Shown here in pieces: positions 11,389 through 57,157 of a DNA stretch of 64,000 nucleotides. The notes below the pieces were generated by a model that saw only the letters and a list, made by a program, of their open reading frames with translations, was not told the origin of the DNA and did no database searches. The DNA is from a virus (lineage: Duplodnaviria > Caudoviricetes). Location of the stretch: IMG/VR virus record IMGVR_UViG_3300042470_001171, positions 1-64,000 of that record. One strand, 5' to 3'. Position 1 is the stretch's first letter. Each line of letters starts with the position of its first letter. Made by a program: the position numbers and the translations under genes.

Positions 11389-11439
11389 AATGGCGGTGTT
11401 TTGTTGTTTTAGAACCCAACTAAAAGCCGCTGGCTATTT

Positions 11440-11527: not shown

Positions 11528-11573
11528 ACCCAACTCTAAGCCACAATCCACACATTTACAGAGAAAAACCACT

Positions 11574-15337: not shown

Positions 15338-15751
15338 CTACAAACTACAGGGGCGGTCAATGTGGTGGACGCCAAGATCGCATCCCTTGATCCTCAATGC
15401 TGCGTACTCCCCCCGCCTCTGTGTCTGGCCTGGGAATAACGATAGCTGCACTTGCTGAGGTTCAGCGGCAGGGCGGCCAACATCCTGATTTAGCCATTCC
15501 AGATAACCTGGATCGCTACCGCCCAGGTTAGGCCCTGGCGCTGGATGCTGGATCCCGCCAACCTTGACGATAGTGCGCTTTACCCATGGCGGATCCAGTA
15601 GGTTGCCTTCTATGTGGTTATACCAACGCATTTCTATAGCTCGGTGACACAATGCCCGGCCACGCATAGCCGTCAAGATATCACCCGTCCTGGCCGCTTC
15701 AGTAAGTAGCGCCTGTCCCTGCTCAAAAAGACATTTAGCCTCGTCTATCAT
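15338..15751 (-). CDS. Hypothetical protein
   Basis: ATGA overlap with sigma gene stop. Confidence 0.55.
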   Translation of the reverse strand: MIDEAKCLFEQGQALLTEAARTGDILTAMRGRALCHRAIEMRWYNHIEGNLLDPPWVKRTIVKVGGIQHPAPGPNLGGSDPGYLEWLNQDVGRPAAEPQQVQLSLFPGQTQRRGEYAALRIKGCDLGVHHIDRPCSL

Positions 15752-16338: not shown

Positions 16339-16428
16339 GCCACCCCCACCAGCCGATATAGTCAGTGTTCCCCTATACTATACTGGGTAAACTGTCAAGC
16401 TGGATCCAGTTGTGGGCACCCTGAAGCC

Positions 16429-17316
16429 ATGGATACTATTACCGTCACCTCCCAGCCCTCCCAGACTGCTAGCCTTGCCCTGCAGCAGGCCAGTAGCGAC
16501 GACCACCTGATCGAGATGTGGATCAGTCGTTCCCGAAGTGCTGGCACCCAGAAAGCCTACCGTCGAGCGATCACCCGGCTACGGGCTTGGCTAGCCCACC
16601 ACGACTGCCACCAGCTAGCCATGGTCACAGCGGCCATGCTGATCGACTATGAGGCCACGTTCCCGAAGCGCTGGAGCGATGCTACCTGCAACCTGCACAA
16701 GGCCGCCATCAAGTCGCTGTGGAAGTTTGGCAGCTCCATTCGTTACCTGCACTTTAATGTCCCCCATGCTGTCTACCGGCTAGGCAAGCCCAGGCCAGTC
16801 ATGGCGGAGCGGATCCTAACCGAAGGCGAAATGAGGCGGGCCATTGCCAAGGAACCTAGCCTGGAGGCCCAGCTATTCCTGCGCTTCCTATTTGCTACTG
16901 GCGTTCGGGCCAGCGAGGCGCTAGCGGTGCGGTGGTGTGACCTGCACCTACGCGGCCAGCGGGTGTTCCTGGCTATCCACCACGGCAAGGGCGACAAGGC
17001 CCGCGAGATCGGATGCTCCAAGGCTGTCTACGACGCGCTGATCCAGGCCCGGCCAGAGGATGCGCTGGACCAGGACGAAATATTCCCGGTGCCCTACCTG
17101 ATCGCTTGGCAATGGGTGAAGGTGGCCATGGCCAGGATCGGCAAGCCCCAGGCTAGCCCCCACTGGCTGCGCCATGCCCATGCTGTCACCGCAGCCGCCC
17201 ATGGCTCCGACTGGTGGAGCATTGCACAGCAATTAGGCCACGCCCGGCCGTCGTTCACAATGGACCGCTACGCCCATTTTAATGGGGTGTTTAGCTCGGA
17301 CTATGTGGATATTTAA
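16429..17316 (+). CDS. Tyrosine recombinase (XerC/D-like)
   Basis: TGVRASE, GKGDK, HWLRH, LGHA...RY catalytic set. Confidence 0.92.
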   Translation: MDTITVTSQPSQTASLALQQASSDDHLIEMWISRSRSAGTQKAYRRAITRLRAWLAHHDCHQLAMVTAAMLIDYEATFPKRWSDATCNLHKAAIKSLWKFGSSIRYLHFNVPHAVYRLGKPRPVMAERILTEGEMRRAIAKEPSLEAQLFLRFLFATGVRASEALAVRWCDLHLRGQRVFLAIHHGKGDKAREIGCSKAVYDALIQARPEDALDQDEIFPVPYLIAWQWVKVAMARIGKPQASPHWLRHAHAVTAAAHGSDWWSIAQQLGHARPSFTMDRYAHFNGVFSSDYVDI

Positions 17317-17350: not shown

Positions 17351-18030
17351 GCGGAAACTCCCACGATGGTGGGGTATAGGATAGGTACGGGCTGGAGGAA
17401 CGCCCACTAGAGTGGGGAATGCCAAGCCCAGTTTCACGCTGGAGCGATAGGGGCAAGACTCACCCCCACCAAAGTGGGGAGGTGTTTGCGAGGTGACGGG
17501 TCAGGCTAGCAAACTGGCCCTAACCGAGAAACCCCCACCGGAGTGGGGAGGTGTTTGCGAGTTAAGGGTGCTGGCGCGGTGCCTGACACTGACGAAAGGG
17601 AAAAACCCCCACCGAAGCGGGGAGGTGTTTGCGAATGCCGAGTCAATCGTGGTGGGCCTAACAGCTACCCCGGAGAAACCCCCACCGAAGCGGGGAGGTG
17701 TTTGCGAGCAGTGGGATCGGCACATTCAACGTCGGAGCGGTGGTCGATCAACCCCCACCGGAGTGGGGAAGTGTTTACCAGGCTGTTGTAAACGGGTTTC
17801 CGGCACATAGAAAAACCCCCACGAGGGTGGGGATACTGTGTTTCAGCCACCTCAAGGGCCAGGGGCGTGATAGGATAAACCCCCACCGAAGTGGGGAGGT
17901 GTTTGCGCTTGGGCACCGTGGCGCAATACGGCTTTTTCTCGGAGAAACCCCCACCAAAGCGGGGAGGTGTTTGCGAGAGGGTGCCCTATGGGCTGTCACT
18001 ATCGGCAGAAAAACCCCCACCGGAGTGGGT
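17351..18030 (-). CRISPR. Array C: 11 hairpin repeats; consensus TCGCAAACACCTCCCCACTTCGGTGGGGGTTTCTC(G/C); mostly 28-38 nt spacers
   Basis: Repeat anchors at 17462, 17531, 17605, 17678, 17751, 17815, 17879, 17947, 18013, plus degenerate hairpins near 17359 and 17402; unique spacers. Confidence 0.92.
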
Positions 18031-18082
18031 CCACCGTCACCTACCACCAAATTTTCAAAGTTCTTGCCCCCACTATAGCACA
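18031..18082 (-). promoter_or_regulatory. CRISPR leader C: TGTGCTATAGT -10, boxA-like GAACTTTGAAAA, GGTGACGGTGG
   Basis: Conserved among four arrays. Confidence 0.75.
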
Positions 18083-18150
18083 AAGCTGGCCAGTTGGTGC
18101 AGGCAAAGCAAACCCCCGGCGAGGGCCAGGGGTGGCAGGCAGGCTAGGGG

Positions 18151-19205: not shown

Positions 19206-19320
19206 GGCGTTAATCCTTGTGTAGTGTGGATGGCCGCTGTAGCGGTGCGGCATGTCACCAATATAGCCGGGGTATATCGGGCCTGTCAATATGCTAGGGG
19301 TATATTAGTGGCACAACTTC

Positions 19321-19423
19321 TGGCACACTCCCACCAAGTGGGAAGTAGGGGATACCGACATAGGATCCACTCCCACGCTGGTGGGGCCTCTTCATGCAGT
19401 GATCCACTCCCACCGCAGTGGGT
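19321..19423 (-). CRISPR. Array D: 3 hairpins with short spacers immediately downstream of cas5
   Basis: CCCAC-N3/4-GTGGGA-GTG... x3. Confidence 0.7.
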
Positions 19424-19429
19424 ATCGCG

Positions 19430-19876
19430 CTAGGCCTCCTCCCGGGCAACAGCCCAGATCGGGCCAGACGGGACACAATTACGCCGTCCTAGGTATAGCT
19501 GGAATTTAGGCCGGGCCAGCGCCTTGGCAATGGTGCGGATCTGCTGCAAGTCACCCCGCAGGGTAACGGTAGAACTGAAGTCGCTCAGGTAGTGCCGGGT
19601 GGTGATGGCATTGCGGCCTGGGGCCCCGTCATAGGTGATAGCATCGCGGATGGTGTGGAAGTCCTCCAACACTCCGCCATGGCTTGTCTCGCCTATCTCC
19701 ACCTGCAGCCCGTCCAGTTCCGGCGCTGACTGGCCTCGACGTATCCCCAGGGCAGCACACAACATGCCGCGGATCGCCGACTCAGTTGGGGCATCCTCCG
19801 TCAGTCGTTGCTGCAGCCGTGGCCCGGTGCCATAGGCAGCCATGGGGCCTGCTAGCTTCAGGACTAGCCTAGGCAT
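19430..19876 (-). CDS. cas5e: Type I-E Cas5 (short, 148 aa)
   Basis: LKLAGPMAAYG...R.T...PTESAIRGMLCAALG...DFHT...RHYLSD...LYLGRRNCVPS. Confidence 0.9.
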   Translation of the reverse strand: MPRLVLKLAGPMAAYGTGPRLQQRLTEDAPTESAIRGMLCAALGIRRGQSAPELDGLQVEIGETSHGGVLEDFHTIRDAITYDGAPGRNAITTRHYLSDFSSTVTLRGDLQQIRTIAKALARPKFQLYLGRRNCVPSGPIWAVAREEA

Positions 19877-21122
19877 AGGCCACCTCCTTGCCAGCACCCA
19901 TGGCTACTTGCAGGGCCCCATCAATGGCCCCGTCCAGGGGCTGGCCGAACCAGCCTGGCTGGGTAGTCACTTCAGCTTTGTACAGCGACTTGTCGCCGTA
20001 GATGACGTTTAGCCGGTCCTGGTACTGGCGCAGCGCATCAGCGGCCTGGTGCGGGATACCCTGGGCTAGGAAGTCGTCGTCGGTGGTGCAGCTATTGATT
20101 GACACATGGAATGCCGGTGCCAAGGTGTAAGGCTGAGCCGCTGTCACCCGCACCTGCACATAGTCTGGCCGAGTTAGATGGGCATGGCTGCGCACATAGC
20201 CAGTCGGCAGGGTAGTGCAGAATGCTGTCAGGAATCCCCGGGCAAACTGCTGGGCCAGCTCGGGGTCGCCGATCAAGCGGGCCAGCTCAGTGACATTCAG
20301 GTTGGCATAGCGGTAGTAGACGGGCGAGATGATGGGCAGCTCCCCCAGGTGGCCAGCGCCAGACTTAGATTCCTCATCCAAGGGTTCAATGTCATCTTCG
20401 GCGGTGAAAAAGTCCGGCTCACCAATCACTTGGCCCATGCCCTTGACATTGGTGATACCAAAGGAATTAACCGAGATCGCATCCGCCACTTGGGTGCAGC
20501 CATCGACGCTGGCCTCAGTCAGGCTAGCCATCATCCGGCCAAACAGTGCGACATCCCCTGGTACTTGCTGGCCTAGCTTGCCCAGAGCTTTGCGGATGCC
20601 CTGCAAATCCCTGGCGCTAGGTTTTTCAGGCGCTGGAGCCTTCTTGGGGTTTATATCCAAAGCCTCCTGGTAACGCTGGGCCCGCTCCAGCATATCTCCC
20701 AGTAGCACCGAATGATCGGCGGCCAGAGCGGCAATGGTGTCCAGCTCATGCTCAGACAGGAATAACAGGTTGCCGCTATCCTCCAGCATGGCCGGGATCA
20801 GGTTGTCGTCTTTGAGGTTGAACAAGCCCAACAAGAACCGAGCCACCATCAAGTTATCAGCGTCACCGCCCAAAAAGCCAGTGCAGCAGCAGGATAGGCG
20901 ACTGGCCAGGGCGACGTCATGGCGACGGCTGCGGAAAGCCAAGGCCTTGCGGTCAACGGCCATCCATTCCCCATAGTGTTGCCGGGCGGCCCGTTTCTGG
21001 GACTGGCTGGAGAGCCGGGCCCGCCAGCTACCACCGTATTGGATCTTTTTGGGTGCCCCGGACTTGTCCCGGTTGGCATTGCTGGGCGGTAAAGCGTGGA
21101 TCAGGTGCACTTCGATAAACAT
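19869..21122 (-). CDS. cas7e: Type I-E Cas7 (Cse4/CasC)
   Basis: PSNANRDKSGAPK...GG...RARLSSQSQKR; DVALFGRM; DFFTAEDD; GAGHLG...YYRYA. Confidence 0.95.
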   Translation of the reverse strand: MFIEVHLIHALPPSNANRDKSGAPKKIQYGGSWRARLSSQSQKRAARQHYGEWMAVDRKALAFRSRRHDVALASRLSCCCTGFLGGDADNLMVARFLLGLFNLKDDNLIPAMLEDSGNLLFLSEHELDTIAALAADHSVLLGDMLERAQRYQEALDINPKKAPAPEKPSARDLQGIRKALGKLGQQVPGDVALFGRMMASLTEASVDGCTQVADAISVNSFGITNVKGMGQVIGEPDFFTAEDDIEPLDEESKSGAGHLGELPIISPVYYRYANLNVTELARLIGDPELAQQFARGFLTAFCTTLPTGYVRSHAHLTRPDYVQVRVTAAQPYTLAPAFHVSINSCTTDDDFLAQGIPHQAADALRQYQDRLNVIYGDKSLYKAEVTTQPGWFGQPLDGAIDGALQVAMGAGKEVAYA

Positions 21123-21150: not shown

Positions 21151-21288
21151 GTGGCCACCCCCACCGCCGTGGGGCCTTTTTGGTTGTCGATCCACACCCA
21201 CCGGAGTAGGTTGTATGACGTGTCTGTGCAGGAGACACCCCCACCGGAGTGGGGCCACTGCTCAGCCCTGAGACACCCCCACCAATGC
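21151..21288 (-). CRISPR. Array E: 3 hairpins plus a partial one in the cas6-cas7 junction
   Basis: Hairpins at 21159, 21196, 21239 and a half repeat at 21277 inside the cas6 3' end. Confidence 0.75.
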
Positions 21289-21876
21289 TGGCGCGGGCTC
21301 AGGCGTAGTCACCGCCGCCACCGGCAGCAACGACAGCAGGCCGCAGCCGTACGCCTTTTCCCGGCCAATGCCGTTGACCATGGCATCAGCTAGCCGCTGG
21401 CTATGGGTCACCGTCAGATACCCGTCCACTACCGATACCTCAATGGGGAATGAACGAGTGTAATGCTCACGGCGCACATGATCATGGTGTTTTTGCACTC
21501 GCACCTGGCGCACCTCGAAGGTAGCACCTAGCCGATCCTCCCTGGCGGCCAGCCACTCAGCGGCAGGCACCGGATAGCGCCGACACCGGTCATCCCGGTT
21601 ACTTTGGGCCACAGAGTTGAGCCCCAGGCGGAAGCGGTAACGCTCCCCAACATTAAGCAGGTTATGCCTAAACTCCAGCTTCACCTGGGCCTCATAGGCT
21701 TTAGGCCACTTGGGCTTTTCTACCGACTGCACCAGGATGGATCCGCCGTCAACCCGGAACAATGCCCCGACTTGGCTGCGGGGGTCTGGGCCCAGATCGT
21801 CAGGAAAGCCCGCCATCACATAGCGGTGCAGGCTTCCATGGCCATCTGGCCGGGCAAAACGAGAAAGGTATAGCAT
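21262..21876 (-). CDS. cas6e: Type I-E Cas6 (Cse3/CasE)
   Basis: YLSR, HRYVMAGFP, LFRVD, LVQS...P.W, YRFRL, C-terminal GIGREKAYGCGLL G-loop. Confidence 0.93.
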   Translation of the reverse strand: MLYLSRFARPDGHGSLHRYVMAGFPDDLGPDPRSQVGALFRVDGGSILVQSVEKPKWPKAYEAQVKLEFRHNLLNVGERYRFRLGLNSVAQSNRDDRCRRYPVPAAEWLAAREDRLGATFEVRQVRVQKHHDHVRREHYTRSFPIEVSVVDGYLTVTHSQRLADAMVNGIGREKAYGCGLLSLLPVAAVTTPEPAPALVGVSQG

Positions 21877-22520
21877 TATCGTGATCCTCCGTAAACGGTT
21901 CTGTAATTGGCTTGCCGCAGCCAGTCCACCGCAGCAGTCTGGCTGGACAAAGTAAATGTGTTGCTATCGAACCGCACCACTTGCAGCTCGACGCCCAGGC
22001 GGCCCTGGACTAGCTGGGCACCCCGGGCCTGACGTTGGCCACCTACGATCAGGCGGTGCAGAAAAGCTTGGTCTTCGGCGGCAATAGGGCCATCCTGAAA
22101 ACTGCGCTTGATGCGCCCCACATGATCGCAAATGTCTGCCTTGGCCCGCTCGAAGCTGATCGGCACCCCAGCAATGCAATAAGTTGGTCGGGGCACCGCT
22201 GGCACTATCTCCCAGGTGAAGCTGGACAGCTCCCCGCTATCGCGGTGGGTCCGTAAGCGTTCCACCGTGGACTTAGCCGGTAGGCCAGTCTCATGGAATA
22301 GCACCAGGTGCTTTTTGCTGGGCCGAGTCCAGCGTCGTTGGTAACTGTTGCCCTGGCCGATGGCCTCCCGCACCTGGTCGGCAGGCTTTACCTCCACCAG
22401 CGTGTCGTACTGAGCACCGTCGACGACTATGTCAATGCGGTCCTGACCTACGGGCACCTCAGTGCGGCCACCATGGCGGACGGCCCAAGCGTCCCGAATA
22501 ATGTCATGGGGGAAGTTCAT
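21876..22520 (-). CDS. PD-(D/E)xK nuclease-fold protein coupled to cas6
   Basis: EV...RIDIVV...LVEVK...AIGQ..SY pattern; TAATG overlap with cas6 start. Confidence 0.7.
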   Translation of the reverse strand: MNFPHDIIRDAWAVRHGGRTEVPVGQDRIDIVVDGAQYDTLVEVKPADQVREAIGQGNSYQRRWTRPSKKHLVLFHETGLPAKSTVERLRTHRDSGELSSFTWEIVPAVPRPTYCIAGVPISFERAKADICDHVGRIKRSFQDGPIAAEDQAFLHRLIVGGQRQARGAQLVQGRLGVELQVVRFDSNTFTLSSQTAAVDWLRQANYRTVYGGSR

Positions 22521-22590
22521 CTGTGGTTTTCCAACCCAATTAATGGCTTATAGTTGGATGGTAACACTTTTTTGTTATCTGGAGAACTAC

Positions 22591-23778: not shown

Positions 23779-23855
23779 ATCGCCAACCCCCCACCCCTCC
23801 CGCAGACCCCGGCCCCATGGCTGGGGTTTTTGCTTGGGCAGCTATGGCCAGCCTT

Positions 23856-23907
23856 GTGCTATAGTGTTGGCAGGAACCTTGACAACTTGGTGGTAGGTGA
23901 CGGTGGA
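23856..23907 (+). promoter_or_regulatory. CRISPR leader F: TGTGCTATAGT -10, boxA-like GAACCTTGACAA, GGTGACGGTGG
   Basis: Conserved among four arrays. Confidence 0.75.
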
Positions 23908-24492
23908 TCCCACTTCGGTGGGGGTTTTTCGTACCCCCGACAGGGCCTTAACGGCGCGTGGCAAACAGCTCCCCACTTTGGTGGGGGTTTTTCTTTTTTC
24001 TAGCCACGATCAACGGGCTGAGCGACTCGCAAACACCGCCCCACTTCGGTGGGGGTTTCTCCCGTGTGACAGCGCATTCCTTTTCATCCCCGCCTTGGTG
24101 GGGGTGTGTCGATTTGCGGTTAACTCATGCACCCCACCCCCGTGGGAGTCTGTCTGCCATTGCCCGGGCCAGCCAGCTAGCCCCACCACTGTGGGGGTGG
24201 GTCAAGCGGATCCCGTCAGCCCCACAGCGTGGGGGTTTCTCCTGTTACCGGTCATGCCCACCATCGTGGGAGTCTGTCCCTACAAAAATCAGCCCATTCC
24301 GGTGGGAGTCTGTCACCCTGGCTCAGCTACCTAGCCCCACCAGCGTGGGGGTGTCTCGGCTGATTTTGAGGCGGGCGTGGCGGTATCGGTCACCTAGCCC
24401 CACCAGCGTGGGGGTGTCTCGCCTTCGCCTCACGATCCCCACCAGCGTGGGAGTGGATCTTGACAGCCCTTAGCCCACCCCGTGGGAGTCTA
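23908..24492 (+). CRISPR. Array F: about 13 hairpin repeats; two tagged long spacers, then mostly short spacers
   Basis: CCCCAC-N3/4-GTGGG(G/A)-GT recurring at irregular ~36-68 nt spacing. Confidence 0.85.
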
Positions 24493-24634
24493 TATGTACT
24501 ACTTAAATACACCATGTATTCGTTTGCCTCCAAGGAAATTGTATCCGCAACTTTTCAAACCTGCACACCGCAAGGGTTTAGCGCCTTACCTCTAAAAGAT
24601 AATAGGCATTAATTCCCCCAGGCCATTTTTTAGC

Positions 24635-25510: not shown

Positions 25511-25600
25511 AACCTTCTCCGTAAGTGGTTCAACAATTTCAATATACCCCCGCCATATCGGCATGTCAATACACCCCCAGTAAATTACTGGCACAACCTC

Positions 25601-25680
25601 TGGCACACTCCCACCACAGTGGGATCCGCCTGCAGCAGTCCAGCGACACACCTCCACGACACACCCCCACCGCAGCGGGG
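25601..25680 (-). CRISPR. Two-repeat mini-array directly after the ATPase stop codon
   Basis: CCCCGC-TGCG-GTGGGG-GTGTGTCG, 32-nt interval, TCCCAC-TGTG-GTGGGA-GTGTGCCA. Confidence 0.65.
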
Positions 25681-25686
25681 AACCTG

Positions 25687-26979
25687 CTAGGCGGTCTCCT
25701 GGCCTGGCTTGGTCCGGTAGAATGGCGTCAGTCGCTGGATCGGCGGGATAGCCAGATCAGGCACAACGCCGATCCTCAGGCTATTGGCGTAGATGGCATA
25801 GGTGCGGTTTACCCCGGGCTGGTTGCGGATCTGGCTGTGGTAGCCTTGGGCAGCCTGTCGGTCGGCGGGGGAGCGGATCAAGGCAGGATCCTGGAGCATG
25901 TTGTCAATGCTCTTGCTGTTGCCCTCCATCGGCTTGCCCAGGTTGTCCTGGGTGGTCTTGCAGCCTAGCCCCAGGGTGCATAGGTTATCCCGTAGGCCAC
26001 TGCTAAAGGTATTCCTGCCGCCAGACAGGCTCAGATCGCCTAGCAGGTGCGACTGGTTCACCATGATCAGGTGCATGTTTAGCTCCCGGCCTGCGGCGAT
26101 CAGACTAAGCAAGCGTTGCTCCATGGCCGACTTGACAGAGCCCTCCATGGCGCTGCACTTGCCCTTTAGCAGCATCCATTCGTCGAATACCGCCCAGATG
26201 TGGTTACCCACCGGGCGGCCCGCTTGGTTCAGCTCAAAGCGTCGTTCTAGCTCAGCTTCCAAGTCCCTGACTACCATCACATAGTCAACGCCAGACTTCA
26301 TCCTGGTAACAGCTGGGGTCAACTGTCCCCACTTGGAGCCCTTGGGATCACAGATCACCAGTTCATCGCCGCGGTTGGCCAGGATAGCGCACAAGCACTG
26401 AAGCAGGTGAGTTTTACCGGATCCAGTCGTCGCCGATAGCAAGATATGGATCTGGCTGGCCAGGTACTGGGGCAGGCTAGTGGCCAGCGGTACTGGCTTC
26501 CACCCCTCCACCACTGGCTCCGGTGGCGTCGCTGGCTGGCTTGGCGGTGGTGGTGACGGTGCGGGGCTCGCTGGGCTGGGCTGGCTTTTGGCCTTTGCTG
26601 GACTTTCCCCCTCCGTCTCCAGAGGGGGCAGCACTTTTGGGGCGCTAGCCATGGCACGTTCTATGAACATGTCCAACGTTTCCCGTTGATCAGCTTTCAA
26701 GCCTTGGAGCAATACCGATGGATCCTGGTAACTCTTGGCTACGATCTGACGGTTCTTGCGCAGCCTGCGGGCACCGTCGTAGGCCACCAGGCTAGCGGCG
26801 GCATAAGCAACTGCAGGGATCGACGAAAATGCAGAGAACAGCAGAAACACAACAACCCCCAAGGGTACATGGGCCTTAGGGATCTGTTGGGCGTAGTGCT
26901 GCCTCAACATATCGTTGAGAAATTCTGGAGCTTGCGAACTGCCTTTCAGGCTACTTGGCACGGGCTTTTGCTGACTCAT
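25687..26979 (-). CDS. Membrane-anchored FtsK/HerA-superfamily ATPase (Tra/coupling-protein-like)
   Basis: N-terminal hydrophobic helices, Pro linker, ATTGSGKT, DPKG, VFDEW, GRE...VNQS. Confidence 0.8.
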   Translation of the reverse strand: MSQQKPVPSSLKGSSQAPEFLNDMLRQHYAQQIPKAHVPLGVVVFLLFSAFSSIPAVAYAAASLVAYDGARRLRKNRQIVAKSYQDPSVLLQGLKADQRETLDMFIERAMASAPKVLPPLETEGESPAKAKSQPSPASPAPSPPPPSQPATPPEPVVEGWKPVPLATSLPQYLASQIHILLSATTGSGKTHLLQCLCAILANRGDELVICDPKGSKWGQLTPAVTRMKSGVDYVMVVRDLEAELERRFELNQAGRPVGNHIWAVFDEWMLLKGKCSAMEGSVKSAMEQRLLSLIAAGRELNMHLIMVNQSHLLGDLSLSGGRNTFSSGLRDNLCTLGLGCKTTQDNLGKPMEGNSKSIDNMLQDPALIRSPADRQAAQGYHSQIRNQPGVNRTYAIYANSLRIGVVPDLAIPPIQRLTPFYRTKPGQETA

Positions 26980-27463
26980 GGCCACCTCCTAAGAAACCGG
27001 GCACCTTTCCGCCCCGGCTAAGGTACTGCTGGACACACAACTGCATTCCAAACACACAGGCCAGGATCGACGCTACGGCCTGCCAGCGGATGTCGCCAAA
27101 CGTCACTCCACCAATGGCCACCAACTTATAACTGGATACTGGCGGCCACACCAAAAGGCCTGCAATAAAGTCCACCGCATAGCCCAGCGTGGCCCAGAGG
27201 GTAGCATCCAGCAGCTCTTCTGGATCCGCCAGAGCAAAGCTGGGCACCTTGCCGCCGACCAACTTATTTAGCGTCGGGAAAATTCCCGCGCCGCCATTGG
27301 TGAGGAATATAGGCTTCAGCTCGAAGCCCTGGACAAGCAGAAACACCACGACAGCGATTAGGCCACCCAGGCGACCGCCAAAGGTATCCTGGCCGACGGC
27401 GTTATAGGCCTTGAGGCTGTTGACAAAGATCGCTCCAGCCAACACCAGAAACAAGTACTTCAT
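26951..27463 (-). CDS. Multi-pass membrane protein
   Basis: About four hydrophobic segments; GGAGG RBS. Confidence 0.7.
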   Translation of the reverse strand: MKYLFLVLAGAIFVNSLKAYNAVGQDTFGGRLGGLIAVVVFLLVQGFELKPIFLTNGGAGIFPTLNKLVGGKVPSFALADPEELLDATLWATLGYAVDFIAGLLVWPPVSSYKLVAIGGVTFGDIRWQAVASILACVFGMQLCVQQYLSRGGKVPGFLGGGHESAKARAK

Positions 27464-28551: not shown

Positions 28552-28618
28552 CCGCTCACCCCCACAATGGTGGGGCAATTAAAGCGCTTCAGCAGGATCC
28601 ACCCCCACTGGCGTGGGG
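28552..28618 (-). CRISPR. Two-repeat mini-array inside the Tra-like operon
   Basis: CCCCAC-GCCA-GTGGGG-GTGGATCC, 19-nt interval, CCCCAC-CATT-GTGGGG-GTG. Confidence 0.7.
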
Positions 28619-28625
28619 CTTGGCC

Positions 28626-29048
28626 CTAGTCCTCGTCAGTGCCACCGTAGGCAGCGGGCAAGCGCAGGGCCGGAGGCTGGATCCCGGCAGAGAAAGCTTT
28701 GAAGCGTTCCACCAAATCAGCGTCAGGACGCTTAGGCAAAAGGCCAGAAATGTCAATCGGCTCAATGGTGGTGTTGATCGTCATGGACCGGACGTTGGCC
28801 AGCCGGGCCATGACAGCGCCCATCAAGCCTTGGCCGCTAAGGGCGTCTTCAAGCAAAGGCGCTATCTGATCAGCCAGGCGCTCCTTAGTGGAGCTGTACT
28901 GCTCGGCCAGGCTGGCCAGGGCCAGGGCGTCTGACTGCATCTGGCCAGCAATGGCCATGGCCAGCTCATGGCCAGCGGCTAGCGGCGCAACACCCTCGGG
29001 GGTGCCGGTGGACTGAGACTGTTCGTTAAGTTGATCGGAGAGGTTCAT
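28626..29048 (-). CDS. Hypothetical protein
   Basis: ATGA overlap with upstream gene. Confidence 0.6.
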   Translation of the reverse strand: MNLSDQLNEQSQSTGTPEGVAPLAAGHELAMAIAGQMQSDALALASLAEQYSSTKERLADQIAPLLEDALSGQGLMGAVMARLANVRSMTINTTIEPIDISGLLPKRPDADLVERFKAFSAGIQPPALRLPAAYGGTDED

Positions 29049-30793: not shown

Positions 30794-31963
30794 ATGGAGA
30801 AACAAATTTCAGATCTCGTCCGCATGGGCGAGACCATTCAGGCTCGAATCAAGCGGTTTGGGCCCCAGACAGCCCTAAGCATTACGAGGGCAGTCCTCGC
30901 GCTCAACGAGAACGAGGTTAACCAGGTGCAGGCCGAGCTAGAGCGTCTAGCGGAGCAGCTAGGCATTGTCGAGGGGATCAACGGATGGGTGTTGGACATC
31001 GGCGCTCTCATCCTTCGCATGAAGGACGACATCCATGCGGCCATTATCCGCACTGGACCCCAGACTACCCTTAACATCACTGTGGCCATTTTGGGTCTGG
31101 CCAAGTCCGATGCTAAGCAGGTGCAAGCCAATCTGGAGCGCCTGGCGGATCAGCTTGGCATCGCCCAAGGAGAAAAAGGCTGGGTGCTCGATACCAGCAT
31201 TCTCGCACCCGAACAGAAACGCAGATACACGTTGGAAAGCCATCGGATCCAGGTAGCACAGAAGGTTGCCTATGAAATGGGTCTGGAGGGCAAGCCTGAA
31301 GTAGCTTGGCGGGCCTTGTCTCGGCGGGTAACTGAACTAACCGGAGAGAAGATCCACGAGGCTTGGTTTGCGCCGTCTGGGCGAGGGGCTCACTTCCGGG
31401 AACACATCGAGGCATCCTTTGCCGATGGCGTGGCTGAGCGGGAGAAACAGATCGACGCCGTGGCTAGCGAGCTAGGTGGCATCGTCGAGGAAGTTGTTGG
31501 TGCCACCAATGGCAATGGCAATGGCCACCACCTGGACGACGGGCCTACCGAGGAAGACTTGACACTCATTCAGGAGATCGCCAAGCTTGAGGCTGACGCT
31601 GAAGAATACCAAGATCGCATCAAGGCGCTAGAGGCCCAGCTAGCGGCCATAGCCTGGGCCAAAGGCGAAGCTGAAGAATACCAAAACAAGATCGCCGAGC
31701 TAGAGGCCCAGCTAGCGGCCTCAGCACCGACCCAGGTACAAACACTCCAGCCAGATACCGGAGGCACCCTAGAGGGGATTCTAGCGGCCCTAGAAACCCA
31801 ACTAGAAGCCGCTAGCCTAAAGGCAGAAGCAGCGACTAAGGCGGTCGAAGCTGCCCAGGAGCAGGCGGAACTGGCTGAACTCGGCGTGGACCAGGCCCGC
31901 CAGCGGCTCCAGGCTGCACTAGAGGCAGTAAATACCCTCCAGTCGCTCAAGGAGGGTGAATGA
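30794..31963 (+). CDS. Coiled-coil protein with duplicated N-terminal domain
   Basis: Two ~67-aa repeats (GPQT.L.IT.A.L...QVQA.LERLA.QLGI...GWVLD); heptad C-terminus. Confidence 0.7.
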   Translation: MEKQISDLVRMGETIQARIKRFGPQTALSITRAVLALNENEVNQVQAELERLAEQLGIVEGINGWVLDIGALILRMKDDIHAAIIRTGPQTTLNITVAILGLAKSDAKQVQANLERLADQLGIAQGEKGWVLDTSILAPEQKRRYTLESHRIQVAQKVAYEMGLEGKPEVAWRALSRRVTELTGEKIHEAWFAPSGRGAHFREHIEASFADGVAEREKQIDAVASELGGIVEEVVGATNGNGNGHHLDDGPTEEDLTLIQEIAKLEADAEEYQDRIKALEAQLAAIAWAKGEAEEYQNKIAELEAQLAASAPTQVQTLQPDTGGTLEGILAALETQLEAASLKAEAATKAVEAAQEQAELAELGVDQARQRLQAALEAVNTLQSLKEGE

Positions 31964-32394: not shown

Positions 32395-32445
32395 CCCTGT
32401 CTTGTGTTCCCTTCCCCTATCCACCCTCACACCCAAGGAGTTCCT

Positions 32446-33366
32446 ATGGGCGCAACCTTACACCCCGTATTCCAGCGGGAATCCATGATCTGGCAAAGCA
32501 TTCTGACCGCCAACGAAAAGCTATTGCTGCTTTGCCTCAACTCGTTCCTAGGCGCTGATGGCCGATGCTTCCCCAGCATTGCCACCATGAGCCGGATGAC
32601 TGGCCTCAGTCGCAGCACGACTAACCGCACCCTGGCCCTACTCGAAGACCAAGCCATCATCAACAGCCAGCAACGCTACCGCGATGACGGCAGCCAGACC
32701 GCCAGTGATCGGTTCCTGGATTTTGATGCCATTCCAATGGCCAAACCGGATCCAGATCCAGCCGAAAATCAAGGCGGGGGGGTATGTCAAAATGACATGG
32801 GGGTGTGTCAGGATGACATGGGGGTGTGTCACAGTGAAACGGGGGGGGTGTCAGACTGGGAGGGGGGGGGTGTCAGCTTGACACACCAAGAACTATCCAG
32901 AAGAACTATCCAGAAGAACTATCTAGATCTTTTCCCCCCTACCCCCCGTTCAGAAAAAAAAGGGAAAAAAGAAACCAGCAAGCTGGATCCGGAAAGAACT
33001 GTTGCGCCGCCCGCCGCCGCGCCGGTGGCCGCAGTGGATCCATCCAAGCCTGATCCATTCGCGGCCCAGTTTGCGCCCAGGCCGTGGCGGGAGAATGGGT
33101 GGGGCAAGATCTTGCCAAAGTTCTGCGAGTTCATGGTTGCTGGCAAGCACATTGTTGTTGACGGGCAGATGAACCCTAAGACGAAGGCGATGTACCATGT
33201 GTCAAACTTGGAGCGAGATGGCAAATGGGATAAACTGGAATATCTCTGGGCTGAGTACCAAGCCAGCCTGCAGCCAGCCAGGCCAAAGGCTAAGCTGGCC
33301 ACGGAAAGCTATGACGAGCGGGTGCGTCGGGAGATGAACCAACACCAACAGAGGGAACACGCATGA
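32446..33366 (+). CDS. Phage replication initiator (N-terminal winged HTH, lambda O-like position)
   Basis: CFPSIATMSRMTGLSRSTTNRTLALLE; internal iterons; directly upstream of dnaB. Confidence 0.8.
   Translation: MGATLHPVFQRESMIWQSILTANEKLLLLCLNSFLGADGRCFPSIATMSRMTGLSRSTTNRTLALLEDQAIINSQQRYRDDGSQTASDRFLDFDAIPMAKPDPDPAENQGGGVCQNDMGVCQDDMGVCHSETGGVSDWEGGGVSLTHQELSRRTIQKNYLDLFPPTPRSEKKGKKETSKLDPERTVAPPAAAPVAAVDPSKPDPFAAQFAPRPWRENGWGKILPKFCEFMVAGKHIVVDGQMNPKTKAMYHVSNLERDGKWDKLEYLWAEYQASLQPARPKAKLATESYDERVRREMNQHQQREHA
32776..32970. repeat. Putative origin: five GGGGGxxTGTCA iterons at 21-bp period, followed by an A-rich tract
   Basis: TGTCA at 32785, 32806, 32827, 32849, 32871; GAACTATCCAGAA duplicated; A-runs at 32954-32974. 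Confidence 0.75.
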
Positions 33367-36298: not shown

Positions 36299-36522
36299 AC
36301 CTAGCCCGACAACTGGCGGCCTATTGCACCGCCAACCCTGAAGAAACCAGCCGACTGGTGGAGGTCGCCATTGGCTACCTGCTAGAGCAGGCTAGCCCGG
36401 AGAACCTGCAAGCCATGGCAGCGCTGATGCCCAGGTCAGAGCCAGGGGCATCGTTGGCCTTGAGCCTGCGGATACTGGCTGAGGACAGGCGGACCTCGCC
36501 CTTTAGCCTGGGAGGGAAGTGA
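36295..36522 (+). CDS. Hypothetical protein
   Basis: Overlapping start/stop codons. Confidence 0.55.
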   Translation: MNLARQLAAYCTANPEETSRLVEVAIGYLLEQASPENLQAMAALMPRSEPGASLALSLRILAEDRRTSPFSLGGK

Positions 36523-37445
36523 TGAACTACTACAACGAAAATGATCCCCAAGCGTCGGCATGGTTGAAGGAGTTGATAGCTCAGGGCGCTTTGCCGGATG
36601 GCGTTGTTGACGATAGGAGCATTGAGGATGTCACTCCAATTGAGCTTGAGCCTTACGTCCAATGCCACTTCTTCGCCGGTATCGGCGGGTGGCCCTATGC
36701 CTTGCAACTTGCCGGATGGCCAGAGGACCGACCCGTATGGACCGGTAGTTGCCCATGCCAGCCTTTCAGCGCGGCAGGCAAAGGAGCGGGGACTGCTGAT
36801 GAGCGGCACCTATGGCCAGCGTTCTTTTGGCTCATTAGCCAGTGTCGCCCTGAGATCGTCTTTGGTGAGCAGGTTGCATCAAGCGATGCCCTTGGATGGT
36901 GGGATGTTGTATCAACTGACCTGGAAGCAGCGGACTACGCCTGCGGGGGAGTCGATCTATGCGCTGCGGGCGTCGGCGCGTTCCATCTGCGCCAGCGACT
37001 GTACTGGGTTGGCACCTTGGTCAACACCCCAAGCCAAGGACAACAAGGGCGGCTACAGCCGTCGGTGGGTGGAGAACGTTCACGGGCGATCTCTCAACGA
37101 TCAGGTGATGTTAGTTCCCTGGCCAACCCCGGCGGCCAGGGATTGGAAATCGAGCGCCAGCAACAAACATGGGGACAATGCCAGACCCTTGAACGAGGTA
37201 GCCAAGCTAACCCATGGCGACACCCCGACTGGCTCCCCTGCCGAGACGGCAAAGCCCGGCCAGCTCAATCCGGCATTTTCCCGTTGGTTAATGGGGTTCC
37301 CGCCGATCTGGTGTGTGGCAGCAATCCTGGCATGCCGGCAAATGAAACGGCGGAAGCCAGAACCATGAGGCTACGCGGCTACGGAAACGCCATCGTTCCC
37401 CAGCTAGCCGCCCAGTTTATTGCAGCAGTCATGAGAGGCAAATAG
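36519..37445 (+). CDS. C5-cytosine DNA methyltransferase, large (alpha-like) polypeptide
   Basis: FFAGIGG, GSCPCQPFS, GEQV, HLRQRLYW, GYGNAIV; no motif IX in frame. Confidence 0.88.
   Translation: MMNYYNENDPQASAWLKELIAQGALPDGVVDDRSIEDVTPIELEPYVQCHFFAGIGGWPYALQLAGWPEDRPVWTGSCPCQPFSAAGKGAGTADERHLWPAFFWLISQCRPEIVFGEQVASSDALGWWDVVSTDLEAADYACGGVDLCAAGVGAFHLRQRLYWVGTLVNTPSQGQQGRLQPSVGGERSRAISQRSGDVSSLANPGGQGLEIERQQQTWGQCQTLERGSQANPWRHPDWLPCRDGKARPAQSGIFPLVNGVPADLVCGSNPGMPANETAEARTMRLRGYGNAIVPQLAAQFIAAVMRGK
36598..37368 (+). CDS. Nested alternative-frame ORF: putative beta polypeptide carrying motif IX (start uncertain)
   Basis: WPTPAARDWK and GQLNPAFSRWLMGFP. Confidence 0.6.
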   Translation: MALLTIGALRMSLQLSLSLTSNATSSPVSAGGPMPCNLPDGQRTDPYGPVVAHASLSARQAKERGLLMSGTYGQRSFGSLASVALRSSLVSRLHQAMPLDGGMLYQLTWKQRTTPAGESIYALRASARSICASDCTGLAPWSTPQAKDNKGGYSRRWVENVHGRSLNDQVMLVPWPTPAARDWKSSASNKHGDNARPLNEVAKLTHGDTPTGSPAETAKPGQLNPAFSRWLMGFPPIWCVAAILACRQMKRRKPEP

Positions 37446-37447
37446 CC

Positions 37448-37645
37448 ATGCAACTAAGCTCCCAGGCAAAGGCCACATTCCGCAAAGGCATTGCCCGCAC
37501 CAAAGCCGCCCAGGCTGCGGCCAAGGAGCTAGCCGCCCTGGTGCTAGCCCAGCCAGACGCCCCGCCAGCCATGCAGGCCCTGGCCCGGCAGGTGCTTGAT
37601 CCGGTGGTGGTGGTAATGGAGGAAGAGCAGCAGGACGCGGCGTAG
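37448..37645 (+). CDS. Hypothetical protein
   Basis: Last gene of operon before array H. Confidence 0.55.
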   Translation: MQLSSQAKATFRKGIARTKAAQAAAKELAALVLAQPDAPPAMQALARQVLDPVVVVMEEEQQDAA

Positions 37646-37651
37646 GCCAGG

Positions 37652-37891
37652 CCCCACGGGTGTGGGGGTGAGTCTTGCGACTCTTGAGGCCCACTGCGGT
37701 GGGGGTGTCTCGACTTGGGGAAAGGTGCCCCACCAAGTGGGGGTGAGTCGAGATGGCGGGGAGGCCCACTGCGGTGGGGGTGAGTCGGTTTAGCTCCTGT
37801 GCCCCACTAGGTGGGGGTGACTCCTACAGGGTTATGGTGTCCCACGGGGTGGGGGTGGCTCAGTAGCCTTTGAGGCCCCACGGGGTGGGGG
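37652..37891 (+). CRISPR. Array H: 7 hairpin repeats with 12-15 nt intervals, right after the replication operon
   Basis: (C/G)CCCAC-N3/4-GTGGGG-GTG at ~36-38 nt period with unique intervening sequence. Confidence 0.8.
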
Positions 37892-37995
37892 AAGAAACCC
37901 AGCCATGGGCTAATGATTGGGTTGTGCTAAAATAGAAGTGCCCTAGGGCGGCTCAACACCCCAGGGCAATGTCCCCTACCACAACTAGGAGAGCT

Positions 37996-38697
37996 ATGAA
38001 TAGCTTAGCAGTTTTTGAGTTTGATTACAGTGGTTCCACCGTTCGCAGCACCGAGGATCGGCGGTTTAGTGTCTACGATGTGCTGGTAGCGTTCGGGGTG
38101 GCTGATAAGCCATCCAACGCTAAGAATGTCTATGATCGGCTTGCTGCAAGCAATCTAGAACTAACTACGATCTGTAGTAAGTTCAAATTCCCAGGCCGAG
38201 GGCAGCGAGACACCCCGGTAGCCACTGAAGAGGGCATCTACCAGATCCTGATGCTGTGCCCTGGCCAGCGTGGTGCAGAGTTCCGGGCCTGGGCCGCTGG
38301 CATTCTTGCCGACCCAGACAAGGCCCTGACCCATGCTGTCAGCAAGTACAAGCGCCAAGGCCGATCCGACAACTGGATTAAGGCTAGGCTAGACGGCAAG
38401 CTGAACCGCCGACACTTCACCGATACCCTCAAGGAACACGGTGTTGAAGGTATTGGCTATGCCAAGTGCAGCGATGCTATCAACGTCCCGATCCTGGGTG
38501 CCCCGGCCAAGCAGATCCAGCAGGCCCGGGGAGTAGTGCATACCAGGGATGGGCTTGATGATGTGGAGCTAGCGGCCATCAGCCTGGCTGAAGCAGTGGC
38601 TAGAAGGTCAATTGACCAGGATAGCCGCTGGGGCAATAGCCAGTGCGAAGAGGCTTGCGGCGATGCAGCTAGGAAGGTGAAGCGGGTTTTCGAGTAG
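37996..38697 (+). CDS. Bro-N/antirepressor-like DNA-binding protein
   Basis: FSVYDVL...FKFPGRGQRDTPVATEEGIYQILMLCPG..GAEFRAWA; AGGAG RBS; TGTGCTAAAAT promoter. Confidence 0.7.
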   Translation: MNSLAVFEFDYSGSTVRSTEDRRFSVYDVLVAFGVADKPSNAKNVYDRLAASNLELTTICSKFKFPGRGQRDTPVATEEGIYQILMLCPGQRGAEFRAWAAGILADPDKALTHAVSKYKRQGRSDNWIKARLDGKLNRRHFTDTLKEHGVEGIGYAKCSDAINVPILGAPAKQIQQARGVVHTRDGLDDVELAAISLAEAVARRSIDQDSRWGNSQCEEACGDAARKVKRVFE

Positions 38698-38779
38698 TAG
38701 AACCCAACTGTAAGCTGGTGGCTGTTGTCTGGGAATTATATGTTAAGCTGGATCCACAGCTTGACAAAATCCCTCGGTT

Positions 38780-40654
38780 ATGCGTAATACTCCTGACGAC
38801 AGCCAGATCAAACTGTTTGACTTTTTTGATGAAGTCAAGCCTAAGATTGAGCTAGGGCAGTCGTTTGAGCGCGTCGACGATGCTGCTAAGCAAGGGTTGA
38901 TTCCGCCGTACGATTTTCAAAGTCCTGAAGGAATACCGTTTTGGCTACTGGTTACTGCATCAGGGTTCAAGGGGGAAGAGCGAGATGATTGTTGTGACCT
39001 TTACGCCAAAAAGGGCTCAACCGACCTTGTCGATCCTGTGCAGTTGCCGGTCGAGCTAGCATGTCTGGCTCTATATAAAAATATTGAGTTTTATCGGTCC
39101 ACGAAGGCTGTTGACGATGACGCAATTATTGTCAGCATTGGCAGCAAACTTGGTAGCCTGAAGCAGGCGATCATTGATTCCGGTCAGACGATTTCTCAGT
39201 CTCAGTCAGTCAGGCGGGTGTTGACTGCCAGGGCATTGATTGATTACCTAGGGATTGGCGGGCATCCGTTTTTTGGTGAACAGGATCAAAGGTCAGGCCT
39301 GGAAATTAAGGTAGATGAGCGAATATTAAAGGCTTGCGTCCGTCCGATCACGGGTACTAATCTGCGGAGTAAAGCCCGAGGTAACGGGGATGAAGAGCGC
39401 AGTCTTTATCCTGATCGGATTGAATATTTAGTTCAGCAAGAAAAGTTATATACCTGGAAGGAACGTAGGGTTAACTACTACTGCGTGACCCCTCCGCCAG
39501 ATGAGCCAGATCCAGCCTCGGCTGTCGTTGAAGCTGAGGTTGAGGTAGTCGAAGTTGCCCAGGAAAGTCCTGGGGCGTTGGTACCAATCGCCCAAGCCCT
39601 GACCAATGCTGAGACGCTGCAAGACGTTTTAGAACACGGAGTTCGGCAGAGGTTTTATGAGACTTTTCAGGAAGACAAAAACCAGGAGTTGTTTGAAGGC
39701 GCTTTACTTGCCTGCGCTAGAGGAATAGGCCGTCAGTTTGAATGGGTCATGTTTGAAGGCAAGAAATGGCTAACGGTCAAACAGCTGGCATCATTGCTGA
39801 GCCTGGAGGAAAATAGCGTTCTTTGGTGGTTTAGAGGCTGCCCCGTACAAGAAACTGTTTTAACTGAGCGGTTGGCCGGGGATAGGTTAAAAAACTACAA
39901 AAACATTTATAACCCCCTGACCCCTCCAGAGGCAGGTGAGTGGTACTCACCTGCCTCTGGAGGGGTAGAGGGGTTGTTTGACAAAACGGTCCATCCATTT
40001 TCATCTCACTTGCTATTGTTCAACCCTGCCGGGGCGTCTTGGATAGCTTTGGCGGCGCGTACTGAGCCAGCCGAGTTGATTAAGAGCAGTTTTTGGGTTG
40101 CATTGGCAGAGATCGCTAATGTCCTAAAAGGTCAGATACAAACATCGGGAAATTCTCTTCAAACTTCCGATCCAGTCGCGTGGGAAATGTTGGTTAACAT
40201 ACATAGGGATGTACAGATTGTGAAAGATCGGTTGGATAATAATGTAGTTCCTACAACTATTAGGACAGAAGAGATAGTGAACGAAATCAACAGAAACACA
40301 AGCTCCCCACGGAGACATTTTCTCCCAGAAGCTATATCTGGCGCTATAGAGGCTTTCCTGTACATCACGCTCAATGCCGGGCGGGATGTCATAGACCAAA
40401 CGTTACTGATCAACGCTGATGGGTCTAAAACTAAAGATTGCGAGCTTGATCACATAAGGAGCAGGTCAGTCAGATCTGCCGAAAATTGTATGCCGCTAAG
40501 TAAATCTACTCATCTCAAAAAAACCCACGGACAACTGACACCTGAGGAAAAATCCACGCTTGAAAGGGCGGAAAAGGCCATAGAACACTATTGGGCACAG
40601 AAGAGTCAGATAGAGCCCTATCAGCCGGGCCTTTTACTTGACACCCAACTATAA
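38780..40654 (+). CDS. Large lower-GC protein with C-terminal HNH-like motif
   Basis: ELDHI...ENCMPLSKSTHLKKT. Confidence 0.55.
   Translation: MRNTPDDSQIKLFDFFDEVKPKIELGQSFERVDDAAKQGLIPPYDFQSPEGIPFWLLVTASGFKGEERDDCCDLYAKKGSTDLVDPVQLPVELACLALYKNIEFYRSTKAVDDDAIIVSIGSKLGSLKQAIIDSGQTISQSQSVRRVLTARALIDYLGIGGHPFFGEQDQRSGLEIKVDERILKACVRPITGTNLRSKARGNGDEERSLYPDRIEYLVQQEKLYTWKERRVNYYCVTPPPDEPDPASAVVEAEVEVVEVAQESPGALVPIAQALTNAETLQDVLEHGVRQRFYETFQEDKNQELFEGALLACARGIGRQFEWVMFEGKKWLTVKQLASLLSLEENSVLWWFRGCPVQETVLTERLAGDRLKNYKNIYNPLTPPEAGEWYSPASGGVEGLFDKTVHPFSSHLLLFNPAGASWIALAARTEPAELIKSSFWVALAEIANVLKGQIQTSGNSLQTSDPVAWEMLVNIHRDVQIVKDRLDNNVVPTTIRTEEIVNEINRNTSSPRRHFLPEAISGAIEAFLYITLNAGRDVIDQTLLINADGSKTKDCELDHIRSRSVRSAENCMPLSKSTHLKKTHGQLTPEEKSTLERAEKAIEHYWAQKSQIEPYQPGLLLDTQL
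39920..39966. repeat. Perfect 22-bp inverted repeat with 3-nt loop
   Basis: ACCCCTCCAGAGGCAGGTGAGT-GGT-ACTCACCTGCCTCTGGAGGGGT. Confidence 0.9.
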
Positions 40655-40848
40655 GCGGCTAGCCTGTTGACACATTCTGCAGCCGGTGTTAGCATGTTGG
40701 TTCCTGGCCTGGGGTGGTGCCTGGGCTTTGGTAGTAATTTCGCTTTTTTGGAGAAGGACGGTCGTTAGGCCGTCTTTTTTATGCCTTACCCCCCACCCCA
40801 GCCCGCTGGCCACCTGGCGGGCTTTGTCGTGGCTGGCCAGGGCTGGCC

Positions 40849-56908: not shown

Positions 56909-57157
56909 AAAACCCCCAGCATTTCCCAAGGTGCTGAGGGCTGAGAGTTAGGAGTTCGTGTGCAGGGCACAACCCAACTATAAACCGTAGGCTAGTGGCT
57001 GTCAACCGGCTGGGCACCCTATAGCTAGCTAGCCCGGTCCAGTCATGCGCACAGTTGCCATACTGCTAACCATCGTTATCGCTGCCACCTGGATCCAAGA
57101 TGCAGCCCGGAGACGTTCAGGTAGTGGCCGTCGAGTTTACCTTAGCCAGGAGAACCC

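Follow-up and report, generated by a model that had tools for sequence, protein, structure and literature searches.

Short type I-E repeat units in a temperate-looking phage with its own cas5e, cas6e and cas7e genes: candidate guides for small Cascade complexes

We analysed the first 64 kb (64,000 nucleotides, nt; hereafter the window) of the 72,813-bp virus record IMGVR_UViG_3300042470_001171 (Caudoviricetes), focusing on tandem hairpin units that resemble CRISPR RNAs, or crRNAs, and that are separated by very short spacers, here called micro-spacers. One run of such units, array H, lies next to the DnaB and C5-methyltransferase operon of a temperate-looking lake phage that also encodes an integrase (16309-17316) and a sigma-70-type factor (Table 1). 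We hold with moderate confidence that the micro-spacer units are genuine crRNA-like genes of a cut-down type I-E system belonging to the phage itself, and that they would act as guides for mini-Cascades carrying two to four Cas7 subunits.

An initial annotation of this sequence had counted seven hairpins in array H, and the same seven were recovered by direct reading and by scoring with a covariance model, R1, which was built from 34 units and identifies 54 oriented units in 12 arrays of the window record; six opposite-strand echoes of palindromic stems were left out of the model matches across the phage records. Each hairpin has a 6-bp stem (CCCCAC/GTGGGG) around a loop of 3-4 nt whose sequence is free, and hairpins 1-6 are followed by 8-nt handles of the pattern G-T-N-N-N-T-C-N (GTGAGTCT, GTGTCTCG, GTGAGTCG, GTGAGTCG, GTGACTCC and GTGGCTCA, in order). 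Successive periods are 37, 39, 36, 38, 38 and 36 nt, the inter-stem lengths, measured from the last stem base to the next stem, are 21, 23, 21, 22, 23 and 21, and the gap between handle and next stem is 13-15 nt, including about two purine-rich pre-stem bases. The handle-less final hairpin recurs in related phages. The 65-codon open reading frame (ORF) upstream, which is likewise conserved in relatives and has no match to a Pfam family, ends in a TAG stop 6 nt ahead of the first hairpin, and a promoter scan of positions 36400-38200 found no consensus sigma-70 site within or directly before the array. The core motif of the units has 62 matches in the window against 1.39 expected, with a maximum of 6 in 100 shuffles, so a chance origin is excluded; a comparison of the window with Rfam gave no family at or above its gathering score. 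When array H is folded as a single RNA, halves of different hairpins pair over long range (z = -2.3), a result that says nothing about the individual units.

To judge by hairpin and handle, the units are type I-E repeats. Model R1 matches both the phage units and canonical cellular arrays with the same hairpin and handle, one of which adjoins a cse1-cse2-cas7-cas5-cas6e operon, and metagenome arrays of this repeat class extend to 150 identical repeats with a 61-nt period. The annotation's premise that 61 nt is the I-E standard is borne out by these controls, some of which recur in several samples, as 618 of their 656 periods fall at 60-63 nt and 18 are below 50 nt. In the canonical repeat, a hairpin of 16 nt is preceded by 5 pre-stem bases and followed by the handle of 8 nt, and its inter-stem stretch is therefore 45 nt, namely the 61-nt period minus the hairpin (8 handle, 32 spacer and 5 pre-stem bases). 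Canonical arrays and phage units share the 6-bp CCCCAC/GTGGGG stem, a 4-nt loop and an 8-nt handle of the form GT...TC plus one base; whereas the former have identical repeats and 32-nt spacers, the short phage units vary freely in the loop and at handle positions 3-5, and their periods are 36-49 nt.

The phage carries its own cas5e, cas7e and cas6e genes, identified with curated NCBIfam cut-offs (TIGR models) and Pfam, and the cas6e product is the presumed processing enzyme for the hairpins. Three relatives (G001, G002 and G003), whose Cas7 proteins are 88-94% identical, are also cas-positive and form with the window record (G000) a set of four records, in which the unit load is 54 for the window record and 35-61 for each of the others. 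A more distant relative, G004, has no units, and tblastn found no cas5, cas6 or cas7 in it; units and cas genes thus occur together in the four cas-positive records and are both lacking in the single cas-negative relative. Of the genes that accompany canonical I-E arrays (cas1, cas2, cas3, cse1 and cse2), the searches covered cas1, cse1 and cse2 and found none: Cas1 (PF01867) has no match in the four records, nor have Cse1 and Cse2 (PF09481, PF09485), although the latter two models match only 1 of 14 control genomes, which makes both negatives weak.

The four records contain 141 in-register unit pairs, of which 85 have a short period (31-49) and 56 a long one (56-79), after leaving out 17 of 158 pairs in which one match was not full length. 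The inter-stem lengths of the 85 short pairs fall into separate classes, with 62 at 20-24, none at 25-26, 18 at 27-29, none at 30-31, 4 at 32-33 and a single pair at 16. The gaps at 26 and 30-31 persist when each spacer family is counted once, in an extended set of 61 families from 30 records, where 42 families lie at 20-24, 1 at 25, 13 at 27-29, none at 30-31, 4 at 32-33 and 1 at 16 (P = 0.0017 for no more than 1 of 13 lying in 25-26 as opposed to 27-28). This set adds about 25 related fragments from pattern scans and was read with a purpose-built scanner that recovers 178 of 182 full-length model matches and adds 8; locus L070, a duplicate of L073, and pieces of G001-G003 among the scanned loci were left out. 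The families are unrelated in sequence, so shared spacer ancestry cannot explain their shared lengths, and within families length varies by at most 1 base, with one exception (29 versus 33). Measured against the canonical 45 nt, the short classes correspond to 45 minus 24, 18 and 12, which fits a 6-nt Cas7 step; the long units show no 6-nt quantisation. In E. coli, as described in the available text of Kuznedelov et al. (NAR 2016, PMC5159557), each Cas7 covers 6 nt, and shortening the spacer by 18 nt yields (Cas7)3-Cas5-Cas6e without Cse2. By extrapolation, the main class at 20-24 would have room for two Cas7 subunits.

Unit length and order are kept in related phages. Orthologues of array H follow the same 65-codon ORF in nine distinct contigs, and 43 of their 44 periods measure 36-39 nt, a conservation that the initial annotation had made a test of its proposal. 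Their micro-spacers form a single ordered series, a-b-c-d-e-f-g-h, in which lengths are maintained while units are lost or duplicated: the window has units a, b, d, e, f and g, one phage carries a triplicated unit, and G002 appends two units from other loci. Guide bases in Cascade are flipped out and unpaired at every sixth position, and the I-E seed comprises positions 1-5, 7 and 8. Counted as minimal changes in the 18 variable families, the micro-spacers changed 0, 1, 2, 0, 0, 6, 3 and 0 times at positions 1 to 8, so that position 6 takes 6 of 12 changes (P = 0.0018; six events, in five families from four arrays), and positions 6 and 12 together take 12 of 32 changes in positions 1-13 (P = 0.002); from position 9 onward changes are frequent. 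This positional pattern fits guides that pair with a target over about eight bases, and it is unexpected for decoys or inert linkers.

The pairing of the hairpins is maintained at RNA level, in the orientation of the neighbouring genes. Of the 665 cells formed by the inner five stem pairs of 133 distinct units, 19 are G-U wobbles and 2 are unpaired, and the outermost pair is open in 43 units. Within spacer families the four fixed handle bases differ at none of 312 sites, and differences amount to 4% in stems, 6% in spacers (58 of 967 sites), 25% in loops and 35% at handle positions 3-5. Divergence at four-fold degenerate sites is 5-9% in the ORF that adjoins array H and 2-46% at other flanking genes, so the spacers cannot be claimed to be more conserved than neutral sites, and the 6% figure is itself biased because the families were defined by spacer similarity. 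The loops and handle positions 3-5 of orthologous short units in G000-G003 outpace the four-fold sites of most flanking genes. Such fast change suggests exchange between repeats, or selection for repeats that are not identical.

If the units are indeed guides, array H would be transcribed as the 3' end of the replication operon and array B from its own promoter. More generally, the first hairpin of leaderless arrays lies 6-7 nt past the stop of a co-oriented gene in all five cases checked in the window, so these arrays would be transcribed with the corresponding operon, and Cas6e cleavage there would also leave an mRNA with a 3'-terminal hairpin. Cas6e would cut at the 3' base of each hairpin, releasing products of 36-39 nt in total, made of the 8-nt GTNNNTC handle, some 8-10 guide bases, about 5 pre-stem bases and the next hairpin. 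The handle would be capped by Cas5e and the hairpin retained by Cas6e, leaving room for two Cas7e subunits in units of 36-39 nt, three in those of 43-44 nt and four in those of 49 nt. With room for only two to four Cas7e, each unit would form a mini-Cascade carrying little beyond a seed, and each seed would have its own specific target. In its most far-reaching form, this proposal would give each genome about 25 seed-only guides, held in a Cas5-Cas7(2-4)-Cas6 particle without Cas8, Cas11 or nuclease that binds single-stranded RNA (or single-stranded DNA) of the host or of rival phages through 7-10 bases, in the manner of a microRNA seed in Argonaute, with guide sets wired into different operons for timed release; we regard that extension as doubtful.

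Several points weigh against the guide interpretation, beginning with the targets. No target was found among the phage records, the phage's own cas promoter or the cellular spacers. Full-length micro-spacer matches (exact, or with 1 mismatch from 12 nt) outside the arrays of five phage records number 38, against 27.6 from shuffles, and matches to the seed (positions 1-5 and 7-10) within the genome of the phage itself total 17, compared with 12.2 +/- 4.5, a count reached by 26 of 200 shuffles. In three genomes no consistent spacer match lies upstream of the cas operon; the single seed match, 298 nt upstream, is intragenic, and G001 and G002 lack a counterpart. Guides of 8-10 bases offer little specificity, and a Cascade lacking Cas8e and Cas11 is not known to open double-stranded DNA. 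The position-6 signal comes from small numbers (6 events in 5 families), the spacer divergence of 6% is not clearly below the local neutral level in families whose definition biases the figure, and the absence of Cse1 and Cse2 hangs on the weak control described above (1 of 14 control genomes). Four freshwater metatranscriptome runs from one study contain the region as contigs, which give no RNA ends, strand or level and may reflect DNA carry-over; processing and Cas binding of the units are consequently inferred. One of these contigs spans 23904-24510 and thus all of array F, and the bin with array H has a low depth (0.13-3.0), on which no conclusion is based.

The initial annotation had left the choice between guides and decoys open. 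According to the decoy proposal, which we consider unlikely, the units would be Racr- or Cracr-like competitors (RNA anti-CRISPRs and crRNA-like regulatory anti-CRISPR RNAs, respectively) that sequester or re-programme Cas6e, Cas5e and Cas7e belonging to a host I-E system of the same repeat class, a minimal unit length maximising the Cas proteins tied up per base. The short units are similar, in hairpin and GTG..TC handle, to widespread cellular I-E repeats whose handle is GTGTTTC, phage repeat mimics inhibit I-E systems according to the available text of PMC10651486, viral Cracr arrays with shortened spacers form complexes with fewer Cas7-type subunits (10.1101/2024.10.29.618823, as far as its available text goes), and a Cas7-based decoy would show the same 6-nt length classes. 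Nevertheless, the units are tandem in a genome with its own cas5, cas6 and cas7, whereas Racrs are defined as solitary and not cas-associated; the one cas-less relative, G004, has no units; and the 350 spacers taken from cellular arrays with this class of repeat match the phages over no more than 15 nt, at chance level. Changes that gather at position 6 while sparing positions 1-5 and 8 would also be unexpected if the spacer were irrelevant. The guide half of the annotation's alternative is the favoured part, apart from its proposed repression of short targets, for which the searches gave no target; it is supported by the length classes, the conserved length and order, the phage's own Cas5e, Cas7e and Cas6e and the position-6 changes, while the Racr-like half fails on units that are neither solitary nor free of cas genes and on a position-specific conservation that it leaves unexplained, although decoy activity is possible as a side effect.

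An improbable alternative of similar standing treats the hairpins as RNA punctuation, that is, as sites of Cas6e cleavage and 3'-end protection for operons, with uninformative stretches in between. It would account for the arrays that bracket cas7-cas5, for the position of the five leaderless arrays just past a co-oriented stop, and for RNA-library contigs that end near array borders, though assembly also breaks at repeats; but one hairpin would suffice, yet arrays reach 11 units, array B has its own promoter and leader with only short units, and the gapped length classes and position-specific conservation are left unexplained. We regard as very improbable that the short units are functionless, decayed trailer ends of ordinary CRISPR arrays. 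In several phages, the short units of arrays A, B, C and F do sit distal to long units that are variable and leader-proximal, and canonical arrays also hold rare short units (18 of 656 periods below 50 nt). However, short units are the majority here (85 of 141 in-register pairs), their spacers fall into narrow length classes while being unrelated in sequence, their stems and four fixed handle bases are kept (0 of 312 handle differences), and whole short arrays stand far from any long unit and are conserved in nine contigs; the annotation's argument that the narrow size range speaks against random decay holds.

Comparison with published systems, limited to the accessible text of the sources cited, places viral Cracr arrays (Liu et al., bioRxiv 10.1101/2024.10.29.618823) closest. 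As described there, Cracr elements are cas-less, rely on host Cas proteins and hold 2-3 spacers per array, each of 17-24 nt, which copy host CreA or CreR guides against host cas or toxin promoters; a spacer counts as targeting when it matches such a promoter with at least 9 bases proximal to the PAM (protospacer-adjacent motif). Cracr arrays and the phage units are alike in being phage-borne, multiplexed and built from degenerate repeats with shortened spacers, and Cracr complexes with fewer Cas7-type subunits, for which spacer size is functionally important, resemble those that we infer for the phage units. In contrast to Cracr, the guide part here is about 8-10 nt (13-15 nt from handle to stem), shorter by one to two Cas7 steps, arrays extend to 11 units, each genome holds about 50 units spread over about 12 loci, Cas5e, Cas6e and Cas7e are encoded by the phage itself, and a match to a cas promoter was not seen. 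Racrs, in the available text of Camara-Wilpert et al. (Nature 2023, PMC10651486), are solitary repeat units with no second repeat within about 100 bp, are not cas-linked, and form aberrant Cas6-Cas7 complexes without Cas5. Both they and the phage units are phage-encoded mimics of CRISPR repeats, the binding of Cas6 and Cas7 by the latter being predicted; unlike Racrs, the phage units are tandem (array H has seven hairpins 36-39 nt apart), carry a conserved Cas5-type handle and travel with cas genes, two short arrays flanking the cas5e-cas7e-cas6e region.

The shortened-spacer E. coli Cascades of Kuznedelov et al. share with the phage units the rule of 6 nt per Cas7, and the complex formed on the -18 crRNA, (Cas7)3-Cas5-Cas6e without Cse2, matches the 27-29 class and the lack of a detected Cse2 gene here. 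According to the available text, those complexes were engineered in the laboratory, with spacers as short as 14 nt, whereas the phage units are natural, conserved and, in the main class, one step shorter, in a phage without a detected Cas8e (a negative with a weak control); the authors speculate on ancestral complexes with as few as one Cas7 (PMC5159557). Other type I variants without Cas3 have 32-nt spacers in the text available for PMC10910872. In the literature covered, we found no description of a phage with cas5, cas6 and cas7 only and 13-15-nt spacers, and the IMG/VR candidate lists of the Cracr preprint and the Racr paper may include this family.

Micro-spacer units are spread over the window beyond array H. 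The periods of 38, 39, 43 and 38 nt given for array B by the annotation are exact in plus-strand coordinates, the array itself lying on the minus strand, and the short units reported in the distal part of array F were found as described; the two arrays that flank the cas genes also consist of short units. In array B, a promoter-like TGCTATAGT box of its own and a conserved leader (7651-7700) precede short units only, whereas its orthologues in G003 and G001 have 2-3 long units ahead of the short ones; the distal part of array F is preceded by three long, leader-proximal units at 23906-24085. A promoter-like TGCTATAGT (or TGCTATACT) box is common to arrays A, B, C and F, as is a leader of about 45 nt whose end, directly before the first hairpin, reads GGTGACGGTGG (or GACAGTGATG). 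In the array B orthologues (G003 12908 and G001 22725), micro-spacer AAACTTTGGTTT of one phage is replaced by CAACTCTGGTTG in the other, positions 1 and 12 having changed together so that a possible 4-bp hairpin within the spacer is kept.

Table 1. Features of the window discussed in the text (window coordinates).
Feature	Position	Strand	Description	Model support
Array H	37652-37890	+	7 hairpins that would give 6 crRNA-like units (handle + 13-15 nt + next hairpin)	
Hairpins of array H	37652-37667, 37689-37704, 37728-37742, 37764-37779, 37802-37816, 37840-37854, 37876-37890	+	hairpins 1-7	
Terminal hairpin of array H	37876-37890	+	without GTNNNTC handle; would close the last unit	
65-codon ORF	37448-37645	+	last gene of the DnaB / C5-methyltransferase operon	
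cas5e	19430-19897	-	155 aa, short	TIGR01868 107.9 bits (cut-off 68.95)
cas7e	19869-21122	-	417 aa	TIGR01869 184.2 bits (cut-off 178.05); PF09344 E 1.3e-67
cas6e	21262-21876	-	204 aa	TIGR01907 52.2 bits (cut-off 45.2); PF08798 E 1.6e-31
Array B	7466-7650	-	5 short units, periods 38, 43, 39, 38 (5' to 3')	
Short-unit array after cas5e	19320-19425	-	3 units, periods 37, 43; starts 6 nt past the cas5e stop	
Short-unit array between cas6e and cas7e	21156-21300	-	periods 44, 43, 39	
Distal array F	24086-24490	+	short units, periods 44, 49, 39, 36, 36, 43, (63), 39	
Two-hairpin locus	25600-25682	-	starts 6 nt past the stop of ATPase-like gene 25687-26985	
Two-hairpin locus	28557-28620	-	period 45; starts 7 nt past the stop of ORF 28626-29048	
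Array C	17355-18032	-	long units, periods 62-74; leader; long-unit contrast class	
Shared box and leader regions	7650-7720, 18033-18090, 23827-23905, 6530-6598			
CCAACTNTAAGCC sites	7446-7458, 11416-11428, 11530-11542, 11801-11813, 16273-16285, 22545-22557, 31798-31810, 38704-38716, 40645-40657, 56974-56986			

The short units form a separate class and do not represent long units cut short. Long units, usually found in leader-proximal positions, carry TTC, TTT or TTA at handle bases 3-5 in 69 of 86 cases and a TTCG or TCCG loop in 58 of 86, while short units have diverse handles, with positions 3-5 free, and 52 distinct loops among 125 distinct units. A conserved pre-stem tag, present in array C as TCGCAAACACCT together with the handle GTTTCTC, occurs in 59 of 90 long units versus 2 of 174 short ones. 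A 9-mer is shared with a long spacer by 13 of 91 short spacers, mostly in composite units; about three of these are independent, against about one expected by rough arithmetic, and an origin of short spacers by truncation of long ones was rejected. The long spacers are phage-specific at the leader end and common at the far end, and RNA-library contigs contain at least 10 different spacers of 29-37 nt between copies of the array F long repeat (window 24026-24063). Because of this leader-end variability and the many further spacers in the RNA-library contigs, the long units resemble a live CRISPR array; the long arrays are highly diverse in the lake population despite the lack of a detected cas1 in the phage. 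One long spacer of G001 (22428-22568; L014 2428-2568) matches 26 of 27 bases at window 7889-7915, a site within ORF 7706-8566 of this phage and of G003 that has 2 mismatches in G001's own copy, and a neighbouring G001 spacer matches the same site. Judging from these matches, long units may target close relatives or the phage itself.

Further observations concern the canonical arrays and other repeats of the window. Rare short units with periods of 36, 38, 41 and 49 nt occur among hundreds of 61-nt units in canonical arrays (L096, L107, L099, L121, L122, L086 and related loci). The canonical array next to the cas operon mentioned above (L082) lies on a 6.8-kb contig labelled as an Asgard archaeon metagenome-assembled genome (MAG), with a complete cse1-cse2-cas7-cas5-cas6e operon; its handle, GTTTATCG, is nearly that of the phage long units, and its Cas7 is 28% identical to the phage Cas7. 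A scan of genome contigs for tandem long-type repeats returned two records, neither of which points to a host, one being a canonical I-E array in a MAG and the other an unrelated match. A second recurrent motif, CCAACTNTAAGCC, has 10 matches in the window against 0.39 expected, often directly 5' of genes (about 25 nt ahead of the start of the nuclease-cas operon, for example) and also directly past array B and the array at 11438; it is a possible promoter or operator specific to the phage and might be recognised by the phage sigma factor (15748-16338). A 21-22-nt tandem repeat (GGGGGTGTGTCAAAATGACAT), iteron-like in appearance, is present in 3.6 copies at 32778-32876, within or beside ORF 32404-33366 and directly upstream of dnaB, and 5.2 copies of a 126-nt tandem repeat (94% matches) occupy positions 1-654, in a 1236-codon ORF that runs off the window start.

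If the micro-spacer units are working guides, Cascade backbones with as few as two to four Cas7 subunits are in use in nature, whereas complexes of this size have so far been engineered E. coli constructs and viral Cracr RNAs stand at one Cas7 below normal. Such a system would offer a testable model of a near-minimal class 1 effector without large subunit or nuclease, and would test how a seed alone gives specificity. Should the seed-only version also be true, it would be a natural RNA-guided regulator made from Cascade parts, and no smaller Cascade would be known. A guide unit of 37 nt together with three small proteins may be of practical interest for compact, multiplexed RNA-guided binding, and the system bears on the use that phages make of CRISPR parts beyond immunity.

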